From assembly GCF_044647545.1 (NCBI RefSeq), contig NZ_CP172818.1: 64,000 nt of DNA, one strand, 5' to 3'. Positions 1-61,882 of this stretch are shown piece after piece; the stretch's first letter is position 1; the number at the start of each line of letters is the position of its first letter. The stretch is from Escherichia coli. GTDB lineage: Bacteria > Pseudomonadota > Gammaproteobacteria > Enterobacterales > Enterobacteriaceae. The notes under the pieces were generated by a model that did no database searches, was not told where the DNA came from, and saw only the letters and a program-made list of their open reading frames with translations. The translations under genes and the position numbers were made by a program.

Positions 1-216
1 ACTCGCTGGCAACAGGCCGGGCAAAAGGTGAAGCCTGGTTTCAAATTAGCAGGCAAGCTGGTACTTCTTACCGCACTGCGCTATGGCCCGGCGGGTGTGG
101 CGGGCTGGGCGATAAAATCAGTTGCTCGCCGACCGCTGAAAATGTTGCTGGCTGTGGCGCTGGAACCGCTGTTAAGTCGGGCTGCCAATAAACTGGCGCA
201 GCGTTATAAAAGGTGA
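1..216 (+). CDS. pspD: phage shock protein D, 3' portion (start codon lies upstream of window)
   Basis: Frame 1 open from position 1 to TGA at 214-216; translation ...[47 protein letters not shown]... matches recalled PspD; directly upstream of pspE as in the psp operon. Confidence 0.8.
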
Positions 217-290: not shown

Positions 291-605
291 ATGTTTAAAA
301 AAGGCTTACTTGCTCTGGCACTGGTGTTTTCACTGCCCGTTTTCGCCGCTGAACACTGGATCGATGTTCGTGTTCCTGAGCAGTATCAGCAAGAGCACGT
401 TCAGGGGGCCATCAATATTCCCCTGAAGGAAGTGAAAGAGCGCATTGCCACCGCCGTTCCGGATAAAAACGACACCGTGAAAGTGTATTGCAATGCCGGA
501 CGCCAGTCAGGGCAGGCAAAAGACATCCTTAGCGAGATGGGATATACCCACGTTGAGAACGCCGGCGGCCTGAAAGACATCGCAATGCCGAAGGTCAAAG
601 GTTAA
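291..605 (+). CDS. pspE: periplasmic rhodanese (thiosulfate sulfurtransferase) PspE
   Basis: 104 aa ORF with signal peptide (MFKKGLLALALVFSLPVFA) and rhodanese active-site region (VYCNAGRQS); position after pspD. Confidence 0.9.
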   Translation: MFKKGLLALALVFSLPVFAAEHWIDVRVPEQYQQEHVQGAINIPLKEVKERIATAVPDKNDTVKVYCNAGRQSGQAKDILSEMGYTHVENAGGLKDIAMPKVKG

Positions 606-648: not shown

Positions 649-818
649 TGTCACACCTTATTTACATCCCCATAGATTATTTGCGTCAGCTCACAAATAC
701 GCTTTTTCCCTGGTAAAAAATGATTTCCTGCGTGACTAAAACCCTTGTGCTCAATTGACAGTTTATTTTCTGCGGAGTAGTCTCTCGCTTCATGGGACCG
801 CTACCACGGAAAGGCAAC

Positions 819-2498
819 ATGAAACAGAAAATTACGGATTACCTGGACGAAATCTACGGTGGAACATTTACCACAACTCATTTACAGAAACTTGTAACGC
901 GTCTTGAGAGTGCGAAACGATTAATTACACTGCGACGTAAAAAACACTGGGATGAAAGTGATGTCGTGTTAATCACCTATGCCGATCAATTTCACAGTAA
1001 TGATTTAAAACCACTACCCACATTTAATCAGTTTTACCCTCAATGGCTGCAAAGCATTTTTTCACATGTTCATTTATTACCTTTTTATCCATGGTCATCT
1101 GATGATGGCTTTTCGGTAATTGATTATCAACAGGTCGCTAGTGAAGCGGGGGAGTGGCAGGATATTCAGCAACTCGGTGAATGCAGTCATTTAATGTTTG
1201 ATTTTGTCTGCAACCATATGTCGGCAAAAAGTGAATGGTTTAAAAACTATTTACAACAGCAGCCAGGTTTTGAAGATTTTTTTATTGCCGTTGACCCGCA
1301 AACCGATCTCAGCGTCGTCACTCGCCCGCGTGCGTTACCGTTATTAACGCCATTCCAGATGCGCGATCATTCAACGCGCCATTTATGGACCACCTTTAGT
1401 GACGATCAAATTGACCTGAATTACCGTAGCCCTGAAGTGTTACTGGCGATGGTGGATGTATTGCTGTGCTACCTGGAAAAGGGCGCAGAATATGTCCGTC
1501 TGGATGCCGTTGGCTTTATGTGGAAAGAGCCGGGAACAAGCTGCATCCATCTGGAAAAAACACATCTGATTATCAAACTGTTACGGTCGATTATTGATGA
1601 CGTAGCACCAGGTACAGTGATCATTACCGAGACCAATGTTCCGCACAGAGACAACATTGCTTACTTTGGCAACGGTGATGACGAAGCGCATATGGTGTAC
1701 CAGTTCTCGCTGCCGCCGCTGGTGCTGCATGCGGTGCAAAAACAGAACGTTGAGGCGCTTTGTGCGTGGGCGCAAAACCTGACACTACCTTCCAGCAACA
1801 CCACCTGGTTTAACTTCCTCGCCTCTCACGATGGCATCGGGCTTAACCCACTGCGTGGCTTGCTACCCGAAAGCGAAATATTAGCGCTGGTCGAGGCATT
1901 ACAGCAGGAAGGGGCATTAGTTAACTGGAAAAATAATCCCGACGGTACGCGTAGCCCGTATGAAATGAATGTCACTTATATGGATGCGTTAAACCGCCGC
2001 GAGAGTAGCGATGAAGAACGTTGCGCCAGGTTTATCCTTGCCCATGCGATTTTGTTAAGTTTCCCCGGTGTGCCAGCGATATATATTCAAAGTATTCTGG
2101 GCTCGCGTAATGATTACGCAGGTGTCGAAAAACTGGAATATAACCGTGCGATTAACCGTAAAAAATATTACAGTGAAGAGATCACGACCGAACTGAACAA
2201 TAAAACGACGTTAAGGCACGCGGTATATCATGAATTGTCGCGACTAATTAAAATTCGTCGAAGTCATAACGAGTTTCATCCAGATAATGATTTTACCATC
2301 GACACGGTTAATTCATCCGTAATGTGTATTCAAAGAAGCAACGCGGATGGTAATTGTCTGACAGGATTGTTTAATGTCAGTGAAAATATTCAGCATATAA
2401 ATATTACTGGCCTGCACGGTCGGGATCTGATTAGTGAAGTTGATATAGTGGGTAATGAAATAACGCTGCGCCCCTGGCAGGTTATGTGGATTAAATAA
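819..2498 (+). CDS. ycjM: sucrose-phosphorylase-family glycoside phosphorylase (glucosylglycerate phosphorylase-like)
   Basis: ORF 792-2498; likely ATG at 819 (MKQKITDYL...); GH13-like motifs; first gene of ycjM-V cluster. Confidence 0.85.
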   Translation: MKQKITDYLDEIYGGTFTTTHLQKLVTRLESAKRLITLRRKKHWDESDVVLITYADQFHSNDLKPLPTFNQFYPQWLQSIFSHVHLLPFYPWSSDDGFSVIDYQQVASEAGEWQDIQQLGECSHLMFDFVCNHMSAKSEWFKNYLQQQPGFEDFFIAVDPQTDLSVVTRPRALPLLTPFQMRDHSTRHLWTTFSDDQIDLNYRSPEVLLAMVDVLLCYLEKGAEYVRLDAVGFMWKEPGTSCIHLEKTHLIIKLLRSIIDDVAPGTVIITETNVPHRDNIAYFGNGDDEAHMVYQFSLPPLVLHAVQKQNVEALCAWAQNLTLPSSNTTWFNFLASHDGIGLNPLRGLLPESEILALVEALQQEGALVNWKNNPDGTRSPYEMNVTYMDALNRRESSDEERCARFILAHAILLSFPGVPAIYIQSILGSRNDYAGVEKLEYNRAINRKKYYSEEITTELNNKTTLRHAVYHELSRLIKIRRSHNEFHPDNDFTIDTVNSSVMCIQRSNADGNCLTGLFNVSENIQHINITGLHGRDLISEVDIVGNEITLRPWQVMWIK

Positions 2499-2511
2499 AA
2501 AGGAACATCTC

Positions 2512-3804
2512 ATGATTAAATCAAAAATCGTGCTGTTATCAGCACTGGTTTCCTGCGCCCTGATTTCAGGTTGTAAAGAAGAAAATAAAACGAATGTCTC
2601 CATTGAGTTTATGCATTCTTCGGTGGAACAGGAACGCCAGGCGGTAATTAGTCAGTTAATTGCGCGTTTTGAAAAAGAAAACCCGGGCATCACCGTTAAA
2701 CAAGTGCCCGTGGAAGAAGACGCCTATAACACCAAAGTCATTACCCTTTCACGTAGTGGTTCGCTGCCGGAAGTGATCGAAACCAGCCATGACTACGCCA
2801 AAGTTATGGACAAAGAGCAGCTTATCGATCGCCTGGCGGTTGCCACGGTCATCAGCAACGTCGGTGAAGGCGCGTTCTACGATGGCGTTCTGCGGATTGT
2901 GCGCACCGAAGATGGTAGCGCATGGACCGGTGTTCCTGTCAGCGCCTGGATTGGCGGCATCTGGTATCGCAAAGATGTGCTGGCAAAAGCCGGGCTGGAT
3001 GAGCCGAAAAACTGGCAACAGTTGCTGGATGTCGCACAGAAACTGAACGATCCGGCGAATAAAAAATACGGTATTGCACTGCCGACGGCAGAAAGCGTGC
3101 TGACGGAGCAATCTTTCTCCCAGTTTGCGTTATCCAATCAGGCTAACGTCTTTAACGCCGAAGGCAAAATCACCCTTGATACCCCAGAGATGATGCAGGC
3201 GCTGACCTATTACCGCGACCTTGCTGCCAACACCATGCCGGGTTCTAACGACATTATGGAAGTGAAAGACGCCTTTATGAACGGCACCGCGCCGATGGCG
3301 ATTTACTCCACCTATATCCTTCCGGCTGTGATTAAAGAAGGCGACCCGAAAAATGTCGGTTTCGTGGTGCCAACCGAGAAAAACTCGGCGGTCTACGGCA
3401 TGTTGACCTCGCTAACCATTACCGCCGGGCAAAAGAGCGAAGAGACGGAGGCGGCGGAAAAATTTGTCACCTTTATGGAGCAGGCGGACAACATTGCCGA
3501 CTGGGTGATGATGTCGCCAGGCGCGGCGCTGCCGGTGAACAAAGCGGTTGTGACGACTGCCACCTGGAAAGATAACGACGTGATTAAGGCGCTGGGAGAC
3601 TTGCCGAATCAGTTGATTAGCGAACTGCCAAATATTCAGGTCTTTGGCGCAGTAGGGGATAAAAACTTTACCCGCATGGGCGATGTGACGGGGTCTGGCG
3701 TGGTGAGTTCAATGGTGCATAACGTCACCGTGGGGAAAGCCGATCTCCCTGGCACGCTGCAAGCGAGCCAGAAAAAGCTGGATGAACTGATCGAACAGCA
3801 CTAA
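2512..3804 (+). CDS. ycjN: ABC transporter periplasmic sugar-binding lipoprotein
   Basis: 430 aa ORF, N-terminal lipoprotein signal (LLSALVSCALISGC), family 1 solute-binding protein features, operon context. Confidence 0.85.
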   Translation: MIKSKIVLLSALVSCALISGCKEENKTNVSIEFMHSSVEQERQAVISQLIARFEKENPGITVKQVPVEEDAYNTKVITLSRSGSLPEVIETSHDYAKVMDKEQLIDRLAVATVISNVGEGAFYDGVLRIVRTEDGSAWTGVPVSAWIGGIWYRKDVLAKAGLDEPKNWQQLLDVAQKLNDPANKKYGIALPTAESVLTEQSFSQFALSNQANVFNAEGKITLDTPEMMQALTYYRDLAANTMPGSNDIMEVKDAFMNGTAPMAIYSTYILPAVIKEGDPKNVGFVVPTEKNSAVYGMLTSLTITAGQKSEETEAAEKFVTFMEQADNIADWVMMSPGAALPVNKAVVTTATWKDNDVIKALGDLPNQLISELPNIQVFGAVGDKNFTRMGDVTGSGVVSSMVHNVTVGKADLPGTLQASQKKLDELIEQH

Positions 3805-53379: not shown

Positions 53380-54408
53380 ATGGCAGAGCAAACCTCGCGT
53401 CTCGCAATAATTATTGATAGCACTGGAGCGAAAAATAATGCTGACAATCTGACCTCCTCATTAGTCAAAATGACGCAGGCTGGGGAAACTGCTGCAAATA
53501 GCGCAGGGAAAGTGACTAAGGCAACAGAAGATGAGAAGAACGCGCTCGCAAAATTAAAAGCAGCTATTGATCCAGTTGGTGCCGCAATTGATACTGTCGG
53601 TCGACGCTATTCTGAATTAAAGAAATTTTTCGATAAAGGGCTTATTGATAAAGAAGAATATGAATTTCTTGTCCGTAAACTTAATGAAACCACAGAGGAA
53701 TTGAGCGGGGTTGCGCAAGCGCAGAGAGAAGCCGAGAAGGCCGGAAAACTTGCTGCCGCTCAGCAGGAAGCGCAGGCTCAGGCCTTTCAAAGAATGCTGG
53801 ACAAGATCGACCCTCTGGCTGCGGCGCTAAGAAATCTTGAACAACAGCATGATGAACTTAATGCTGCGTTTGCATCCGGGAAAATAAATGGTTCTCAGTT
53901 TGAGAATTATAGCCGAAAAATACAGGAAACACGGCGAGAGCTTACCGGAGAGGCTCAGGCAGAGCGAGAAGCAGCAAAAGCGCATGATGAACAGGTTGTT
54001 GCTTTGCAACGTCTGATTGCTCAACTTGATCCTGTCGGAACTGCTTTTAATCGTCTGGTAGAACAACAGAAACAGCTCAATGAAGCAAAAGCTAAGGGGA
54101 TGCTTTCTCCTGAAATGTATGAGGAGCTTTCTGGAAAACTTCGTGCTATGCGGAGTGAGCTTGAGGTTACTCAATCACAATTAAGCAAAACCGGAATGTC
54201 GGCAAAACAAACGGCTTTTGCTATGCGCATGTTGCCTGCACAAATGACGGATATTGTTGTTGGGTTGTCCACTGGTCAGTCGCCATTTATGGTGTTAATG
54301 CAGCAGGGCGGCCATTCAGCTATGCAGGAGACAAGAATCGCCAGCTTACCCGTTACAGCGATACCCGCTGGCATGAAGATTCAGTGCGTAACCGCTGGTT
54401 CAGCATGA
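53380..54408 (+). CDS. tmpR: tail tape-measure protein fragment (N-terminal coiled-coil part)
   Basis: 342 aa ORF, highly alpha-helical A/E/K/Q-rich sequence; C-terminal ~35 codons overlap lom-frame sequence, indicating a deletion junction. Confidence 0.7.
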
Positions 54409-54524
54409 TGGCGGGGCCATCTGTACGCGTGAATGAATGGTTCAGTGCTTATGCGATGGCGGGTGTGGCTTACAGCCGTGTTTCGACGTTCTCCGGGGAT
54501 TATCTCCGCGTAACTGACAACAAG

Positions 54525-55720
<1,196 letters not shown>

Positions 55721-55935
55721 CAAGGGGAAAACGCACGATGTGCTGACCGGAAGTGATGACGATCGCCACAGCAACACGTCTCTGGCGTGGGGAGCTGGCG
55801 TGCAGTTTAACCCGACCGAATCCGTGGCCATTGACATTGCTTATGAAGGCTCCGGCAGTGGCGACTGGCGCACTGACGGTTTCATCGTGGGTGTCGGTTA
55901 TAAATTCTGATTAGCCAGGTAACACAGTGTTATGA

Positions 55936-55963
55936 CAGCCCGCCGGTTCAGGCGGGCTTTTTT
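55936..55963 (+). terminator. intrinsic terminator downstream of lomR
   Basis: agcccgcc-ggttca-ggcgggct followed by tttttt. Confidence 0.45.
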
Positions 55964-55968
55964 GTGGA

Positions 55969-58900
55969 GTGGATATGGCAGCAGTAAAAATCTCAGGTGT
56001 GCTGAAAGATGGTGCGGGAAAACCAATACAGAACTGCACTATTCAACTGAGGGCAAAGCGTAACAGCACCACGGTACTGGTGAACACGGTGGCCTCTGAA
56101 AATCCGGATGAAGCCGGGCGTTACAGCATGGATGTTGAGTATGGCCAGTACAGCGTCACCCTGCTGGTTGAAGGTTTTCCGCCTTCACATGCCGGAACCA
56201 TTACCGTCTATGAAGGTTCCAGACCAGGTACGCTGAATGATTTTCTCGGTGCCATGACGGAAGATGATGTCATGCCGGAGGCATTGCGTCGTTTTGAGGC
56301 AATGGTGGAAGAAGCGGCACGCAACGCGTCCGCGGTGGCACAGAACACGGCAGCCGCGAAGAAGTCAGCCAGTGATGCCAGCACATCAGCCCGTGAGGCG
56401 GCAACCCATGCGGCTGATGCTGCGGACTCAGCACGCGCAGCCAGCACGTCAGCCGGACAGGCCGCGTCGTCGGCTCAGTCAGCGTCTTCCAGCGCAGGAA
56501 CGGCATCAACAAAGGCCACTGAAGCATCAAAAAGTGCTGCCGCTGCAGAGTCCTCAAAAAGCGCGGCGGCCACCAGTGCCGGTGCGGCGAAAACGTCAGA
56601 AACGAATGCTTCAGCGTCACTACAATCAGCAGCCACATCTGCATCCACCGCGACCACGAAGGCATCAGAAGCTGCGACCTCGGCCCGGGATGCGGCGGCC
56701 TCAAAAGAAGCGGCAAAATCATCAGAAACGAACGCATCATCAAGCGCCAGTAGTGCAGCTTCCTCGGCAACGGCGGCAGGAAATTCCGCGAAGGCGGCAA
56801 AAACGTCCGAGACGAACGCCAGGTCTTCTGAAACGGCAGCGGGACAGAGCGCCTCGGCTGCGGCAGGCTCAAAAACAGCGGCTGCGTCGTCTGCCAGTGC
56901 AGCGTCAACAAGTGCCGGGCAGGCCTCAGCCAGTGCCACCGCCGCCGGAAAATCGGCAGAAAGCGCCGCATCGTCTGCTTCAACAGCCACAACGAAGGCT
57001 GGCGAAGCCACTGAACAGGCCAGCGCAGCAGCGAGGTCTGCTTCCGCAGCGAAGACATCCGAAACGAACGCGAAAGCGTCGGAAACAAGCGCAGAATCCT
57101 CAAAAACGGCTGCCGCATCGTCAGCCAGTTCGGCGGCGTCATCGGCATCATCGGCGTCTGCTTCAAAAGATGAGGCGACCAGACAAGCGTCAGCAGCGAA
57201 GAGCAGCGCCACGACGGCATCCACGAAGGCGACAGAGGCTGCTGGCAGTGCGACGGCGGCAGCTCAGAGCAAAAGTACGGCGGAATCCGCGGCAACGCGC
57301 GCCGAGACAGCAGCTAAACGGGCAGAGGATATTGCATCCGCCGTGGCGCTTGAGGATGCAAGTACGACGAAAAAGGGGATAGTACAGCTCAGCAGTGCGA
57401 CCAACAGTACGTCTGAAACGCTGGCGGCAACGCCAAAGGCAGTAAAATCAGCCTATGACAATGCAGAGAAACGTCTGCAGAAAGACCAGAACGGCGCTGA
57501 TATACCCGATAAGGGATGCTTCCTGAACAACATTAACGCGGTCAGTAAAACAGACTTTGCTGATAAGCGTGGTATGCGTTATGTGCGGGTTAACGCTCCT
57601 GCAGGTGCAACATCTGGAAAATATTACCCTGTTGTTGTTATGCGTTCTGCTGGCTCAGTAAGCGAACTGGCATCAAGAGTCATTATCACCACGGCAACGC
57701 GAACCGCAGGCGATCCGATGAATAACTGCGAGTTTAACGGATTTGTTATGCCTGGTGGCTGGACTGACAGGGGGCGTTATGCTTATGGCATGTTCTGGCA
57801 ATATCAAAACAATGAACGAGCCATTCACTCAATAATGATGAGTAATAAGGGCGATGATTTGCGCTCTGTGTTCTATGTTGATGGCGCTGCTTTCCCTGTT
57901 TTTGCGTTTATTGAAGATGGCCTGTCAATATCCGCACCTGGTGCTGATCTCGTTGTTAATGATACGACCTATAAGTTTGGGGCAACAAATCCGGCGACTG
58001 AATGTATCGCGGCGGACGTTATCCTTGATTTTAAGAGTGGGCGTGGTTTTTATGAGTCTCATTCGTTAATCGTTAACGATAACTTGTCGTGCAAAAAACT
58101 TTTTGCCACAGACGAAATTGTAGCGCGTGGTGGTAATCAGATTCGAATGATAGGTGGGGAGTATGGTGCATTATGGCGTAATGATGGCGCTAAAACTTAC
58201 CTGCTGCTTACCAATCAAGGTGATGTTTATGGTGGCTGGAATACATTAAGACCGTTTGCTATTGATAACGCAACCGGCGAACTGGTTATTGGAACCAAAC
58301 TGTCCGCAAGTCTGAACGGTAATGCATTAACAGCAACAAAGCTGCAAACGCCAAGACGGGTTTCTGGTGTTGAGTTTGATGGTTCCAAAGATATTACTTT
58401 AACCGCCGCGCATGTGGCTGCTTTTGCCAGAAGGGCAACGGATACATATGCCGATGCGGATGGTGGCGTTCCATGGAATGCCGAATCTGGCGCTTACAAT
58501 GTCACCCGCTCTGGCGACAGCTATATTCTGGTTAACTTCTATACCGGAGTCGGAAGTTGCCGGACCCTGCAGATGAAGGCGCATTACAGAAATGGTGGTC
58601 TGTTCTACCGTTCTTCAAGAGACGGTTATGGTTTTGAGGAAGACTGGGCAGAAGTTTATACCTCGAAAAATCTTCCACCAGAAAGCTACCCAGTCGGCGC
58701 ACCAATCCCGTGGCCATCAGATACGCCACCTGCAGGTTATGCAATCATGCAGGGGCAGACGTTTGATAAGGCAGCATATCCGAAACTGGCTATTGCCTAT
58801 CCTTCTGGTGTTATTCCAGATATGCGCGGCTGGACAATCAAGGGCAAACCCGCCAGTGGTCGGGCCGTATTGTCTCAGGAACAGGATGGCATTAAATCGC

Positions 58901-59340
58901 ACACCCACAGTGCCAGCGCATCCAGTACGGATTTGGGTACGAAAACCACATCGTCGTTTGATTACGGTACTAAATCAACGAATAACACAGGTGCACATAC
59001 CCACAATGTATCTGGTACTGCAAATAGTGCTGGCGCACATACTCATACCGTTCCATTAAGGAGACCAAACAGTGGCGGTATGAATTTCGACTGGCTGGAT
59101 GGTTCATCAAGTGGCACGGTGGTGGGGAATGGAACTGTGCCTTCTTCTGGCGCACATACCCACTCAGTATCAGGTACCGCTACAAGTGCTGGGGCACATG
59201 CACACACTGTTGGTATTGGCGCTCATACGCACTCTGTTAAGATTGGTTCACATGGACACACCATCACCGTTAACGCTGCTGGTAACGCGGAAAACACCGT
59301 TAAAAACATCGCATTTAATTATATTGTGAGGCTTGCATAA
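55969..59340 (+). CDS. stfR: side tail fibre protein
   Basis: 1123 aa ORF (GTG at 55969; ATG at 55975); long Ala/Ser/Thr-rich low-complexity central region and C-terminal His-rich repeats (GAHTHxVSGTA). Confidence 0.85.
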
Positions 59341-59915
59341 TGGCATTCAGAATGAGTGAACAATCACGTACCGTAAAAATTTATAACCTGCTGGCCGGAA
59401 CTAATGAGTTTATTGGTGAAGGTGACGCATATATTCCACCTCATACAGGGCTGCCAGCTAATTCTACAGATATCGCCCCACCGGAAATTCCTGCTGGCTT
59501 TGTGGCAGTTTTTAACAGTGAAAATGAATCGTGGAATATTGTTGAAGACCATCGTGGTAAAACGGTCTATGACGTGGCGTCGGGGGACGCATTGTTTATT
59601 TCTGAACTCGGACCGCTACCAGAGAATGTCACCTGGTTGTCGCCAGCAGGGGAGTATCAGAAGTGGGACGGCGTATCCTGGGTGAATGATGAGGAAGCAG
59701 AAAAACTGTTTCGGATACGGGAAGCGGAAGAAAGAAAAAGCAACCTGATGCAGGTAGCCAGTGAGCATATTGCGCCGCTTCAGGATGCTGCAGATCTGGA
59801 AATTGCAACGGAGGAAGAAACCCCGTTGCTGGAAGCATGGAAAAAGTATCGGGTATTGCTGAACCGTGTTGATACGTCAACTGCACAGGATATTGAATGG
59901 CCAGCACTGCCGTAG
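59340..59915 (+). CDS. tfaR: tail fibre assembly protein
   Basis: 191 aa ORF whose ATG overlaps the stfR stop (TAATG); Tfa family. Confidence 0.85.
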
Positions 59916-60012
59916 GGTAAAACATATAAATTCTATAATTAGATGTATCTTTCCATTTACGGCAAGGAAGGGGGCTTGGAAGACGTAAAGCATCTCACAC
60001 CGAGATTATTTT

Positions 60013-60603
60013 TTATATGTCAGGTGTCTGAAGTTTTGCTTTGGCTCTTAAAATGGTTTGCCGCGAGGTTTTGAATTCCCGGGCAATGGCACTTATACTT
60101 ACACCTGACTTAATTCGTTCGAATACCACCTGTTTCTGTTCTTCATTTAACACAGGTGGTCGACCAAAACGTTTCCCTGCGCCGCGGGCTCTTACTATCC
60201 CGGAATGAGTGCGTTCAAGTAAAAGGTCTCGTTCAAATTCAGCGACTGCTGAAATTACTTGCATCATCATTTTTCCTGTTGGACTGGTCAGGTCAATGCC
60301 ACCCAATGCTAAGCAATGCACTCTGATACCTGTTTCGGTCAGTTGTTCCACTGTTTTCCTGATATCCATTGCATTACAACCAAGGCGATCCAGTTTTGTC
60401 ACAATCAATTGATCACCACATTTCAGGCGAGCAAGCAACCGGTTAAAACCAGGACGCTCACTGGTTGCTGCTGAGCCGCTAATGTGTTCTTCGATTATTT
60501 GCTGAGGTTTGATTTTAAAACCTGCACTTTCGATTTCCCGGCGTTGATTTTCGGTGGTCTGATCCAGCGTTGATATCCGACAGTAAGCAAAAATTCGAGA
60601 CAT
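60013..60603 (-). CDS. pinR: serine-recombinase DNA invertase (Pin/Hin/Gin family)
   Basis: 196 aa ORF with N-terminal resolvase catalytic region ([15 protein letters not shown]) and C-terminal HTH. Confidence 0.85.
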
Positions 60604-60919
60604 AGTGAGACTCTATACGAAATTGGTGTTCATATCATAATGCATCTCAGAAAATAATTATGATTATTTTTGTGCATATTTGTATGTACACGTTCGAAAA
60701 TAAACGAATGCGTATGCAACCCCGTAATTTTGGTGAGACCCAAAATCGATTTTGTGAAAAAAGGCTTTAACTCGGTTTGTTTTTCGAGTTCCGGGCGGAC
60801 TCAAGGAAGAAGAATAGTGTTGCGTGTTATTTTAACCAGATTTCAAGTTGTTTGGTCGTGGAAAAGTGGAGCAAAATGTTGTTAAAGTGGAAAAATGATA
60901 AAAAAGTAAGTTTATTATA

Positions 60920-61153
60920 TTACATTTTACCATTTAAATTTTGGTTGTCTTTAAGAACTGATATCGCTGTTTGTAATAATTCTTTGTTATCCAGCCATGA
61001 TTTTTTCTTTATGTTTCCTTCAATGTAATCAAGCAATGTTCTGGTATTGATAGGTCTTCCCTGTTTTGCTACTTCCACTACAGCATCCCCTAGGATAATT
61101 CTTACTTCAGGAAGCTGCGCAGGGAACCACTTTAGGGTGTCTTTTGATTTCAT
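60920..61153 (-). CDS. ynaE: prophage protein YnaE (YdfK-like)
   Basis: ORF 60920-61258; likely 77-aa product MKSKDTLKWFPAQLPEVRIILGDAVVEVAKQGRPINTRTLL... Confidence 0.65.
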   Translation of the reverse strand: MKSKDTLKWFPAQLPEVRIILGDAVVEVAKQGRPINTRTLLDYIEGNIKKKSWLDNKELLQTAISVLKDNQNLNGKM

Positions 61154-61882
61154 GAAGATATTCCTTAAAATATTATTGATTTTCATTGCGATATTGTATG
61201 TCTGATTCAGGATATGTTGACTTATACATCGGTTTTGTCTGGTTATTGGATATGCCAATCCCTAATTTTATTAGAGCATGACTAAAAATGCTGAATATGA
61301 TAAGGAGCGAAGTGATTATCAGTATGCTGTTCATATAGCCTCGAATTAGTAATGTGTTATATATGATATAGTTGACAATTTTTATCCTGGGTGTTCTTAA
61401 AGTTCGTAGATAAACATTGTCGTTTCAGGTATACAGGAATGCTAACAGGTGGCGGCAAAAATCAGGCGGTTTATGGCGCAAGCTGAAGTGGCAACTGCAA
61501 ACTATCTTATGCAGAGACTCTACACGGATTGGGTTTAAAAGTATACATAGATAACAGTTTTTATCTGAAGAAGAAAAATATCAAGGTGATATAGCCTATA
61601 TGCCTTTGATGCGGAGGAATGAATGTGATGGGAGTGATGTATCTGAATAGTTGAAAAACCGCAGTCACGTCGTATGCAAGAACGTGCTGCGGTTGGTTTG
61701 ACTTTGATTGAGACGTTTTGGAATTTTTTTCGGTGGCAAAAATGGGGCAAAACGCTGCAAAAGGGGCAAAAAAGGGGCAAAAAAAGAGTGGATTATCGTA
61801 GCTTATTGTTGTCGCTGATGATATTTAACACATTGAAAAATAAGTAAAATACTTATGAGTCAGAGAGTTGTGATTTTTGCCC

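Follow-up and report, generated by a model that had tools for sequence, protein, structure and literature searches.

The window analysed here, a stretch of 64,000 nucleotides of Escherichia coli DNA (contig NZ_CP172818.1), carries a prophage side tail fibre gene of the stfR type whose extended Ala/Ser/Thr-rich tract raises the question of what such a tract contributes to the fibre and whether its repetitive appearance makes it prone to changes in length. The tract very probably forms the proximal part of the shaft in a side tail fibre of the lambda type, a coiled-coil rigid spacer whose DNA is not slippage-prone and whose length is changed by in-register exchange.

The fibre gene and its prophage setting

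The features of the locus are collected in Table 1. The stfR open reading frame opens at a GTG codon (55969); the ATG at 55975 (MAAVKISG...) agrees with the starts of annotated homologues, and the K-12 stfR annotation begins at the equivalent of this codon. From the N-terminus, StfR comprises a PF08400 domain, the heptad tract, a gp34-like domain, a collar domain and a gp37-like tip. The PF08400 match is strong (E = 1.4e-67; 226 bits against a Pfam cut-off of 26.6), and residues 5-97 match the lambda "Tail fiber protein" chains 9e7m/9mgh of the PDB (E = 4.2e-48). 9e7m is the solved N domain of lambda Stf, and the domain acts as a collar around the tail (PMC12617516). These matches bear out the original prediction of an Ala/Ser/Thr tract in a side tail fibre gene, and the interval that it gave, 56250-57400, brackets the tract (56296-57345) correctly. 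At the distal end, 2xgf matches residues 905-1123 (E = 1.3e-84, PDB sequence search), and the GAHTH repeats of the tip appear in the DNA as repeat families D4/D6 at 58971-59211. The region of the junction motif that closes the tract aligned, over residues 443-524, to Mu tail fibre S (5yvq) in the same type of search. An NCBIfam scan of StfR matched no family.

Directly upstream of stfR lies a 3' fragment of lom and directly downstream tfaR. The prophage is defective, with a truncated tape-measure gene and a lom interrupted by IS5; this copy of StfR may therefore never enter a virion. J, which precedes lom-stf-tfa in intact relatives, is missing owing to the deletion that this prophage has suffered, its tape-measure gene being cut short. 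The features of lambda-type Stf proteins found in StfR are the PF08400 domain, the lom-stf-tfa gene order, the heptad shaft and the gp37-type tip.

Table 1. Coordinates of features in and around stfR (positions in the window; residues numbered from the GTG)
Feature	Position	Strand	Basis
stfR-type side tail fibre gene	55975..59340	+	ORF list; annotated homologues
N-terminal collar/anchor domain, residues 5-97	55981..56259	+	PF08400, 9e7m/9mgh
Spurious 372-aa ORF, frame +2	56264..57382	+	ORF list
Spurious 341-aa antisense ORF	56270..57295	-	ORF list
Probable coiled-coil proximal shaft, 50 heptads	56296..57345	+	Heptad phase, AF2 monomer, lambda equivalent
Mosaic boundary at 5' edge of tract	56322..56328		Three-way alignment
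Spurious 249-aa antisense ORF	56475..57224	-	ORF list; relative frame of lambda "orf206b"
Conserved junction motif closing heptad tract	57367..57447	+	Homologue alignments
T4 gp34-like trimerisation domain, residues 666-765	57964..58263	+	PF21446, E = 3.4e-27; PDB 4uxe/5nxf
T4 gp37-like receptor-binding tip with collar domain, G-A-H-x-H repeats	58681..59337	+	2xgf, PF07484, PF03335
tfaR, tail fibre assembly chaperone gene	59340..59915	+	Overlaps stfR stop codon

Heptad periodicity and the shaft it would form

Residues 110-459 of StfR (GTG numbering; 1050 nt) are 50 consecutive heptads with no phase break and the consensus x-[T/S]-S-A-[S/T]-x-A. Position 7 is Ala in 48 heptads and Val in the other two, position 4 is Ala in 35 of the 50, and position 3 is Ser in 37. 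Ala (132), Ser (85) and Thr (40) make up 73% of the 350 residues, with ten Gly and no Pro. The residue autocorrelation has its only peaks at lags 7, 14, 21, 28 and 35 (z = 7.7-10 against 500 shuffles), and its flat profile over lags 7-35 (0.38-0.42) reveals no super-period, unlike that of the related tracts of STEC-type prophages described below. The "quasi-repetitive" units of the original prediction are thus truly periodic, with a strict period of seven residues (21 nt), but at the level of the protein and not as a tandem repeat in the DNA. The "low-complexity" label undersells what is a phase-perfect coiled-coil heptad array, and masking under that label conceals it. A heptad tract serving as a coiled-coil shaft is itself an already known, ordinary structural element that leaves the current understanding of tail fibres unchanged.

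In Ur-lambda, gpStf residues 102-393 are reported to form the proximal coiled coil of the trimeric fibre, on the basis of cryo-EM/ET and AlphaFold3 (PMC12617516). An AF2 monomer model of the StfR segment shows helix at fragment residues 16-306 and 315-399 (approximately protein residues 102-485), with a kink at residues 307-314; built on a shallow alignment, it has a pLDDT of about 80 over the first 150 residues and a mean of 62. That the tract might instead be an intrinsically disordered, flexible Ala/Ser/Thr linker with no folded rod is suggested by its strongly biased composition, by the moderate to low AF2 confidence in its second half, and by a PDB sequence search that returned no structure, and hence no solved homologue, matching residues 110-440. 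A disordered linker, however, would need neither to hold a strict seven-residue phase for 350 residues and place Ala at 48 of 50 d-type positions nor to confine insertions and deletions to whole heptads, as diverged homologues do. The lack of Pro and scarcity of Gly likewise speak against it, as does the straight rod that the proximal part of the lambda side fibre forms in cryo-ET (PMC12617516), and we regard this alternative as very improbable.

In the favoured coiled-coil arrangement, three StfR chains would each contribute an alpha-helix of about 350 residues to a parallel coiled coil, whose trimeric state we carry over from the lambda literature. Its core (heptad positions 4 and 7) would be filled almost exclusively with Ala, with Ser beside it. 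With the N-terminal domain clamping the fibre onto the tail, such a rigid shaft may act as a spacer that keeps the gp34-like, collar and gp37-like receptor-binding modules apart from that domain. At about 0.148 nm per residue, we infer a length of some 52 nm for the 50 heptads, compared with about 37 nm for the 36 heptads of lambda.

DNA repetition and alternate reading frames

The tract stands out from its flanks in base composition (62% GC and 11% T overall; GC 0.59-0.64 against about 0.45-0.52 outside; AT skew +0.33 to +0.47). Its codons are almost exclusively GCN, TCN, ACN, AGY, AAR and GAR, which accounts for the GC richness, the poverty in T and TA, and the open alternate frames. Repetition is present at the protein level only, the 21-nt periodicity of the DNA being that of synonymous-codon shuffles. 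Tandem Repeats Finder (minimum score 30) detected no array in the tract, its sole match being a 22-nt unit, CGGCATCAT, in 2.4 copies; the longest exact direct repeat within the 1050 nt is 12 nt, a length equalled or exceeded in 67-78% of shuffles; and adjacent heptads are about 45% identical in DNA, lag-21 identity being 0.456 against 0.441 in synonymous shuffles. Slippage of the repeats, put forward in the original prediction, is therefore unsupported. No change in tract length was seen among K-12 genomes, the 1151-nt query aligning as a single ungapped 1151-nt piece in each of the 30 best-matching genomes (mostly K-12 laboratory or evolved strains).

A DNA-level contingency locus, in which slippage or intragenic unequal crossover often alters fibre length within a strain, would sit well with a 21-nt periodicity exceeding that of codon shuffles (z = 3-6), with the 12 of 19 degenerate direct-repeat spacings in the tract that are multiples of 21, and with a relative (L031) in which a 189-nt unit, with exact repeats of 85 nt, is present three times, showing that expansion takes place in its lineage. 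Against it, besides the repeat statistics and ungapped alignments above, the tract is that of K-12 base for base from 56328 to about 58500 even though both sides have recombined. This reading is largely refuted for the present copy, and we consider it highly unlikely.

The original prediction also listed ORFs of 372, 341 and 249 aa in other frames as spurious; all three are present as described and are by-products of the T/TA poverty of the tract, without conservation. Frame +2, that of the 372-aa ORF, has hardly any room for a stop, as just 6 of the 350 codons have T in second position; nonetheless, 1-3 stops are found there in K-12, Turner, A34, AF16 and lambda. The 341-aa antisense frame owes its openness to the scarcity of C-T|A at codon junctions. 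The protein sequence by itself predicts about one stop in the 249-aa frame, and 1-4 occur in every homologue. Overall, homologues have 1-9 stops in the alternate frames, the number varying with lineage, and the frames are not kept open.

The case for a real overlapping gene, with selection for an open antisense frame shaping codon choice, is most apparent in the 341-aa frame, where one stop is found against 7.9 under synonymous shuffling (P ~0.001), and in lambda, where the same frame has none against 5.0 expected; moreover, orf206b is annotated in the lambda reference record as a "hypothetical protein" running antisense within the equivalent tract. However, lambda and Rac, with 83% identity between their tracts, are not independent tests, and the missing stops are explained by a general depletion of T|A at codon junctions; STEC-type tracts, likewise depleted, nevertheless have 5-9 stops in this frame. 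orf206b sits in the other antisense frame, for which few stops would be predicted in any case, and a CRISPRi screen in lambda (PMC10695390) scored it as non-essential. It shares with the 249-aa ORF the frame whose third codon position lies opposite that of stf, and both arise from the same composition; the two differ in length (206 aa in lambda), and evidence of function was found for neither. The putative antisense products are Trp/Arg/Leu/Pro-rich or plain mirror images of the Ala/Ser/Thr tract. Substitutions cluster at the third codon positions of stfR (73 of 129 differences between the window and lambda). Counts of synonymous and nonsynonymous changes are uninformative for the wobble-overlap antisense frame, which scores 53:52 because its third position coincides with that of stfR. 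An overlapping gene thus appears extremely improbable, and the three ORFs are best left as products of composition.

The scarcity of TA itself goes beyond what protein sequence and codon usage require (5 dinucleotides against 31.6 expected; 4 T|A at codon junctions against 14.2). It could conceivably, although this strikes us as a long shot, reflect selection at the nucleic-acid level, either for protection of a long and highly repetitive mRNA, or of a single-stranded DNA intermediate in recombination, from a TA/UA-specific nuclease or, in the lambda/Rac lineage, for an open antisense frame; if so, a constraint at the DNA or RNA level would act on the heptad shaft in addition to protein structure.

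Length variation, mosaicism and comparison with known fibres

Fibre length does vary among stfR homologues, and nearly always by whole heptads, with counts of 20-21, 33, 34, 35, 36, 44 and 51. Among 27 representatives (50%-identity clusters carrying both anchors), the anchor-to-anchor distance differs from that of the window by an exact multiple of seven residues in 24, where one in seven would be expected by chance; the other three break the rule. Heptads were counted with a phase-walking counter (51 in the window, 36 in lambda), which replaced the motif GIVQL as the mark of the tract end, as this anchor failed on STEC-type proteins, whose distal module differs. A protein search with the N-terminal 137 aa returned almost exclusively partial fragments of 120-240 aa, unusable for lengths, and the comparison was drawn instead from viral contigs, phage records and a representative library.

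Recombination has left a mosaic boundary at the 5' edge of the tract. From about 55835 to 56322 the window follows the allele of an STEC-type prophage (L002), and downstream of the boundary that of K-12 Rac; three further matches, 98-99% identical to the window (H34-H36), all stop at query 359, that is, at window position 56327. At the other end, many homologues cease to resemble the window just past the junction motif, and the matches H25-H27 stop near it, at query 1469-1491. Strain cS100a has a chimeric tract in which Rac-type and STEC-type heptads are joined in register. Lambda x Rac recombinants have been selected with a cat cassette, the right homology arm of which corresponds to window 56469-56510 (PMC3945230); the forward stfR::cat primer (De Paepe et al.) found no match in the window at up to three mismatches because the 5' end follows another allele. 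Chi sites were rejected as a recombination hotspot, none lying within stfR. A fibre switched by an invertase of the Mu Gin, P1 Cin or e14 Pin type was likewise considered, as pinR adjoins at 60013-60603, and was set aside: no site with the crossover core AAACCnnGGTTT occurs within stfR-tfaR-pinR, and the interval 57400-61200 has only weak inverted repeats (16-21 nt, 76-88% complementarity).

Recombination as a source of length variation, also proposed originally, holds for exchange between paralogous copies on prophages and for STEC-type relatives, in which the 189-nt higher-order unit has been duplicated, but not inside the degenerate repeats of this copy. Shaft length probably shifts over evolutionary time through in-register homologous exchange among the several prophage-borne stf copies and, in some relatives, also through unequal crossover between long higher-order repeats, with selection maintaining the heptad phase.

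The main value of these observations lies in annotation: the 372-, 341- and 249-aa ORFs should not be called, and lambda orf206b is an artefact of the same origin. Assemblies from short reads may be interrupted within the tract or close to it, probably on account of sequence common to several prophages per genome. For phage engineering, shaft length is probably tunable in steps of seven residues, since natural shafts with the same flanking modules differ by whole heptads (from about 20 to 51), and the conserved tract ends offer natural splice points for exchanging receptor-binding modules.

Among known fibres, K-12 Rac StfR (b1372) and the tail fibre of phage Turner share the 51 heptads of the window and a tract identical from 56328 on. 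The window and K-12 Rac also have in common the order tape-measure fragment, lom split by IS5, stfR, tfaR and pinR; at 94.7% identity over the gene, they differ in two patches, the 5' end as far as 56322, where the window has the STEC-type allele, and 58500-59750, comprising the receptor-binding tip and tfaR. The STEC-type prophage Stf proteins (785-855 aa; IMG/VR loci L002-L081, phage PhiR46_1) have an N-terminal domain 97-100% identical to that of StfR and, after it, an uninterrupted heptad shaft of Ala/Ser/Thr/Lys/Glu, but one of different heptad sequence with 33-35 heptads and an unrelated distal domain. In contrast to the window, their DNA contains a true higher-order repeat of nine heptads (189 nt) with exact copies of 29-85 nt, one three-copy variant of which reaches 44 heptads. 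Lambda Stf resembles StfR in its N-terminal collar domain, in its heptad tract (252 residues align at 82% protein identity), in the tract-closing motif and gp37-like tip, and in the tfa chaperone gene downstream. It differs in that the tract of the window is longer by 15 heptads (51 against 36; 105 residues or 315 nt) in a single indel, in that StfR, at about 1121 aa against 774 aa, has a gp34-like trimerisation domain mid-protein, and in that the StfR copy resides in a defective prophage.

Heptad periodicity and alternate reading frames of the stfR tract

Written in sevens, residues 110-459 of the stfR product (DNA 56296-57345) form 50 consecutive heptads with zero phase shifts. Of the 50, 48 have Ala at position 7 and two have Val there; Ala also fills position 4 in 35, and Ser position 3 in 37. 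Ala, Ser and Thr make up 73% of the residues, Pro is absent and Gly occurs only 10 times. Relative to 500 shuffles, residue autocorrelation reached z = 7.7-10 at lags 7, 14, 21, 28 and 35, and was at or below background at every other lag. The GC content is 0.59-0.64, compared with ~0.5 in the flanks, and A is far more abundant than T (11%). All features described in the original prediction, including internal repeat periodicity, were thus found in the tract, and an ORF listing returned the 372-, 341- and 249-aa alternate-frame ORFs at the sizes claimed.

These extra ORFs, which had been proposed to be spurious, are artefacts of composition. Codon position 2 is T in just 6 of the 350 tract codons, so that frame +2 is hardly able to hold a stop. 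Among the antisense frames, the in-phase frame has 29 stops, 28 of them from the Ser codon TCA; about one stop is expected in the wobble-overlap frame; and a stop in the third requires C-T|A across a codon junction. Stop counts in homologues show none of the alternate frames to be conserved as open: frame +2 contains 1-3 stops in K-12, phage Turner, strains A34 and AF16 and lambda, the 341-aa frame 5-9 in the tracts of the lambdoid prophage Stf group referred to here as STEC-type, and the 249-aa frame 1-4 in all homologues compared. Differences between the window and lambda favour third codon positions of stfR (73 of 129). Lambda itself carries an annotated counterpart, the 'hypothetical protein' orf206b (NC_001416, 4995-5615, minus strand), which lies antisense inside the stf heptad tract in the same frame as the 249-aa ORF and is the same artefact; a CRISPRi screen scored orf206b as non-essential.

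One stop interrupts the 341-aa antisense frame, where synonymous shuffles give 7.9 (P ~0.001). The shortage comes from the scarcity of T|A across codon junctions (4 versus 14.2 expected), where T|G is over-represented (36 versus 25.3). TA dinucleotides are likewise scarce across the tract (5 versus 31.6 expected). T|A depletion at junctions is far milder in other window genes (observed/expected ~0.9) and in the remainder of stfR (68 versus 73.5). It is common to lambda and STEC-type tracts, and the STEC-type frame is nonetheless closed, for which reason we read it as a nucleotide-level bias rather than as evidence of an antisense gene.

Shaft length, slippage and exchange between prophages

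Heptads were counted, uninterrupted, from a fixed N-terminal anchor. By this rule there are 51 in K-12 Rac, phage Turner, strains A34 and AF16 and the window, 36 in lambda, 20-21 in E. coli 536, 33 in strain cS100a, and 33, 34, 35 or 44 in 80 viral contigs whose N-terminal domain is 97-100% identical. Searched exhaustively with HMMER, 1.84 billion cluster representatives yielded 692 relatives of this domain, 27 of which contain both anchors, GTLNDFL and KG[ILV]V[QKR]LS. The anchors are 67, 129, 158, 165, 174, 179, 270, 277 or 382 residues apart, the window being at the top of this range, and for 24 of these 27 representatives the difference from the window's 382 is exactly divisible by 7 (chance, 1/7). 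Homologues thus do vary in length, as had been suspected, and the variation is quantised in whole heptads. In the protein search, database proteins with the N-terminal domain were mostly 'partial' (120-240 aa) and from short contigs; plausibly, the tract, which several prophages in one genome have in common, interrupts short-read assembly close to its start.

Recombination or slippage had been put forward as the source of such variation. The tract DNA offers little for slippage or RecA-type intragenic exchange to act on, being repetitive merely as a shadow of the protein. Although its 21-nt autocorrelation exceeds that of codon shuffles (z = 3-6), DNA identity at lag 21 (0.456) is indistinguishable from that of protein-preserving synonymous shuffles (0.441), and at greater lags it is equal to or below theirs. 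Tandem Repeats Finder detected no array in the tract, and the longest exact direct repeat in its 1050 nt is 12 nt, the means being 13.2 in synonymous and 12.2 in codon shuffles. Seed extension revealed degenerate repeat families of 63-83% identity; 12 of 19 spacings within the tract are multiples of 21, which is the heptad again. In line with these results, the 30 best-matching genomes, mostly K-12 laboratory or evolved strains, all matched the 1151-nt query over 1151 nt without a gap.

STEC-type tracts do possess a true higher-order DNA repeat of nine heptads (189 nt; exact copies of 29-47 nt), which has no equivalent in the window. One contig of this group, L031 (IMGVR_UViG_2541047862_000009, ~2505-3602), has three 189-nt copies, with an exact repeat of 85 nt, and reaches 44 heptads (855 aa); the third copy is a classical unequal crossover. 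It is the single clear intragenic expansion among the relatives.

Recombination between prophage copies is what changes shaft length among homologues, in whole heptads; the tract is not a slippage-prone DNA repeat, and the original interpretation is partly supported. The tract of cS100a is a mosaic of 26 Rac-type heptads, a shared KTSETNA heptad and then STEC-like heptads in register. The window allele is itself STEC-type up to 56322 and K-12 from 56328, switching within the first two heptads, and 98-99% matches from several genomes (H34-H36 of the stfR genome search) stop exactly at that switch. Partners for ectopic exchange are abundant, the tract being present in 4,670 of 5,426 genomes and occupying two places per genome at the median and seven at most. 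With stfR carrying a cat cassette, De Paepe et al. (PLoS Genet 2014, PMC3945230) selected for lambda x Rac recombinants; the cassette's right homology arm maps to window 56469-56510. Crossovers fell mostly in adjacent regions of 88% identity; they depended chiefly on Red-beta and had no hotspot (PMC3945230). Where the primer lies and how far lambda and Rac are similar lead us to infer that the right-hand crossovers lay inside the tract.

Prophage setting

In E. coli K-12 the region corresponds to the right end of the Rac prophage; with 97.7% identity over 14 kb, it is not K-12 itself. The prophage is defective (53380-55910), its tape-measure ORF being truncated at 54408 and lom being broken by an IS5-family element at the same position as in K-12. 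Differences from K-12 are concentrated in two places, the 5' end of stfR and a stretch made up of the gene's 3' end and tfaR, with zero between ~56500 and 58500; when stfR was compared over its full length with 5,426 complete E. coli genomes, the highest identity was 94.8%. A mechanical ORF call begins stfR with GTG 55969 (MDMAAVK...), whereas annotated homologues use the ATG that corresponds to 55975 (MA(A)VKISG); relative to K-12, the window has one additional Ala codon (55978-55980). The 3' lom fragment and first ~120 stfR codons (55739-56328) are a non-K-12-Rac allele nearly identical to STEC-type contig L002, and look like gene conversion from another prophage. A second patch (58500-59750; ~200 differences from K-12) spans the gp37-like receptor-binding tip and most of tfaR. 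The final 633 nt of stfR also occur with 100% identity in the record of a 47-kb E. coli plasmid (NZ_CP115826.1, match H32), which suggests that this host-range module was exchanged with a phage-plasmid or another prophage. A motif search found no AAACCnnGGTTT-type crossover site in or around stfR/tfaR, nor was there a convincing inverted repeat flanking them in 57400-61200; pinR appears to be an orphan invertase without an invertible fibre segment here.

Features of the stfR region and domains of its product
Feature	Window position	Residues	Strand	Basis or remark
Tape-measure gene, truncated	53380-54408
IS5-family transposase (element splitting lom)	54672-55652		minus
stfR	55969/55975-59340		plus
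tfaR	59340-59915
pinR, Pin-family DNA invertase gene	60013-60603		minus	adjoins tfaR
Prophage tail fibre N-terminal domain		5-137		Pfam, E = 1.4e-67
T4 gp34-like trimerisation domain		666-765		Pfam
Tail-collar domain		910-957		Pfam
Phage-fibre repeats				Pfam; follow tail-collar domain in domain order
Lambda 'tail fiber protein' chains 9e7m/9mgh		5-97		solved structure, E = 4.2e-48
Mu fibre protein S		443-524		solved structure
T4 gp37 receptor-binding tip 2xgf		905-1123		solved structure, E = 1.3e-84

The tract as a side-fibre shaft

In the search against solved structures, coverage of the tract was zero. Direct repeats at 58971-59211 (33-63 nt, 61-78% identity) encode G-A-H-x-H motifs of the distal tip, which align to T4 gp37 (tip structure 2xgf). 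An AlphaFold2 monomer built from an 11-sequence alignment predicts helix at fragment residues 16-306 and 315-399 (approximately protein residues 102-485), with pLDDT ~80 over the first 150 residues and lower past them. The gpStf of Ur-lambda is described as a trimer with a proximal coiled coil at residues 102-393 (Yu et al., Sci Adv 2025, PMC12617516), and the tract aligns with that lambda segment at 82% protein identity across 252 shared residues, the sole gap being one 105-residue block, exactly 15 heptads. From the lambda trimer, this alignment and the predicted helix, the tract is very probably the coiled-coil shaft of a side tail fibre of lambda type, its core filled by Ala and flanked by Ser. 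Such a shaft is already known from lambda-type fibres, and that of the window lies near the upper limit of natural lengths.
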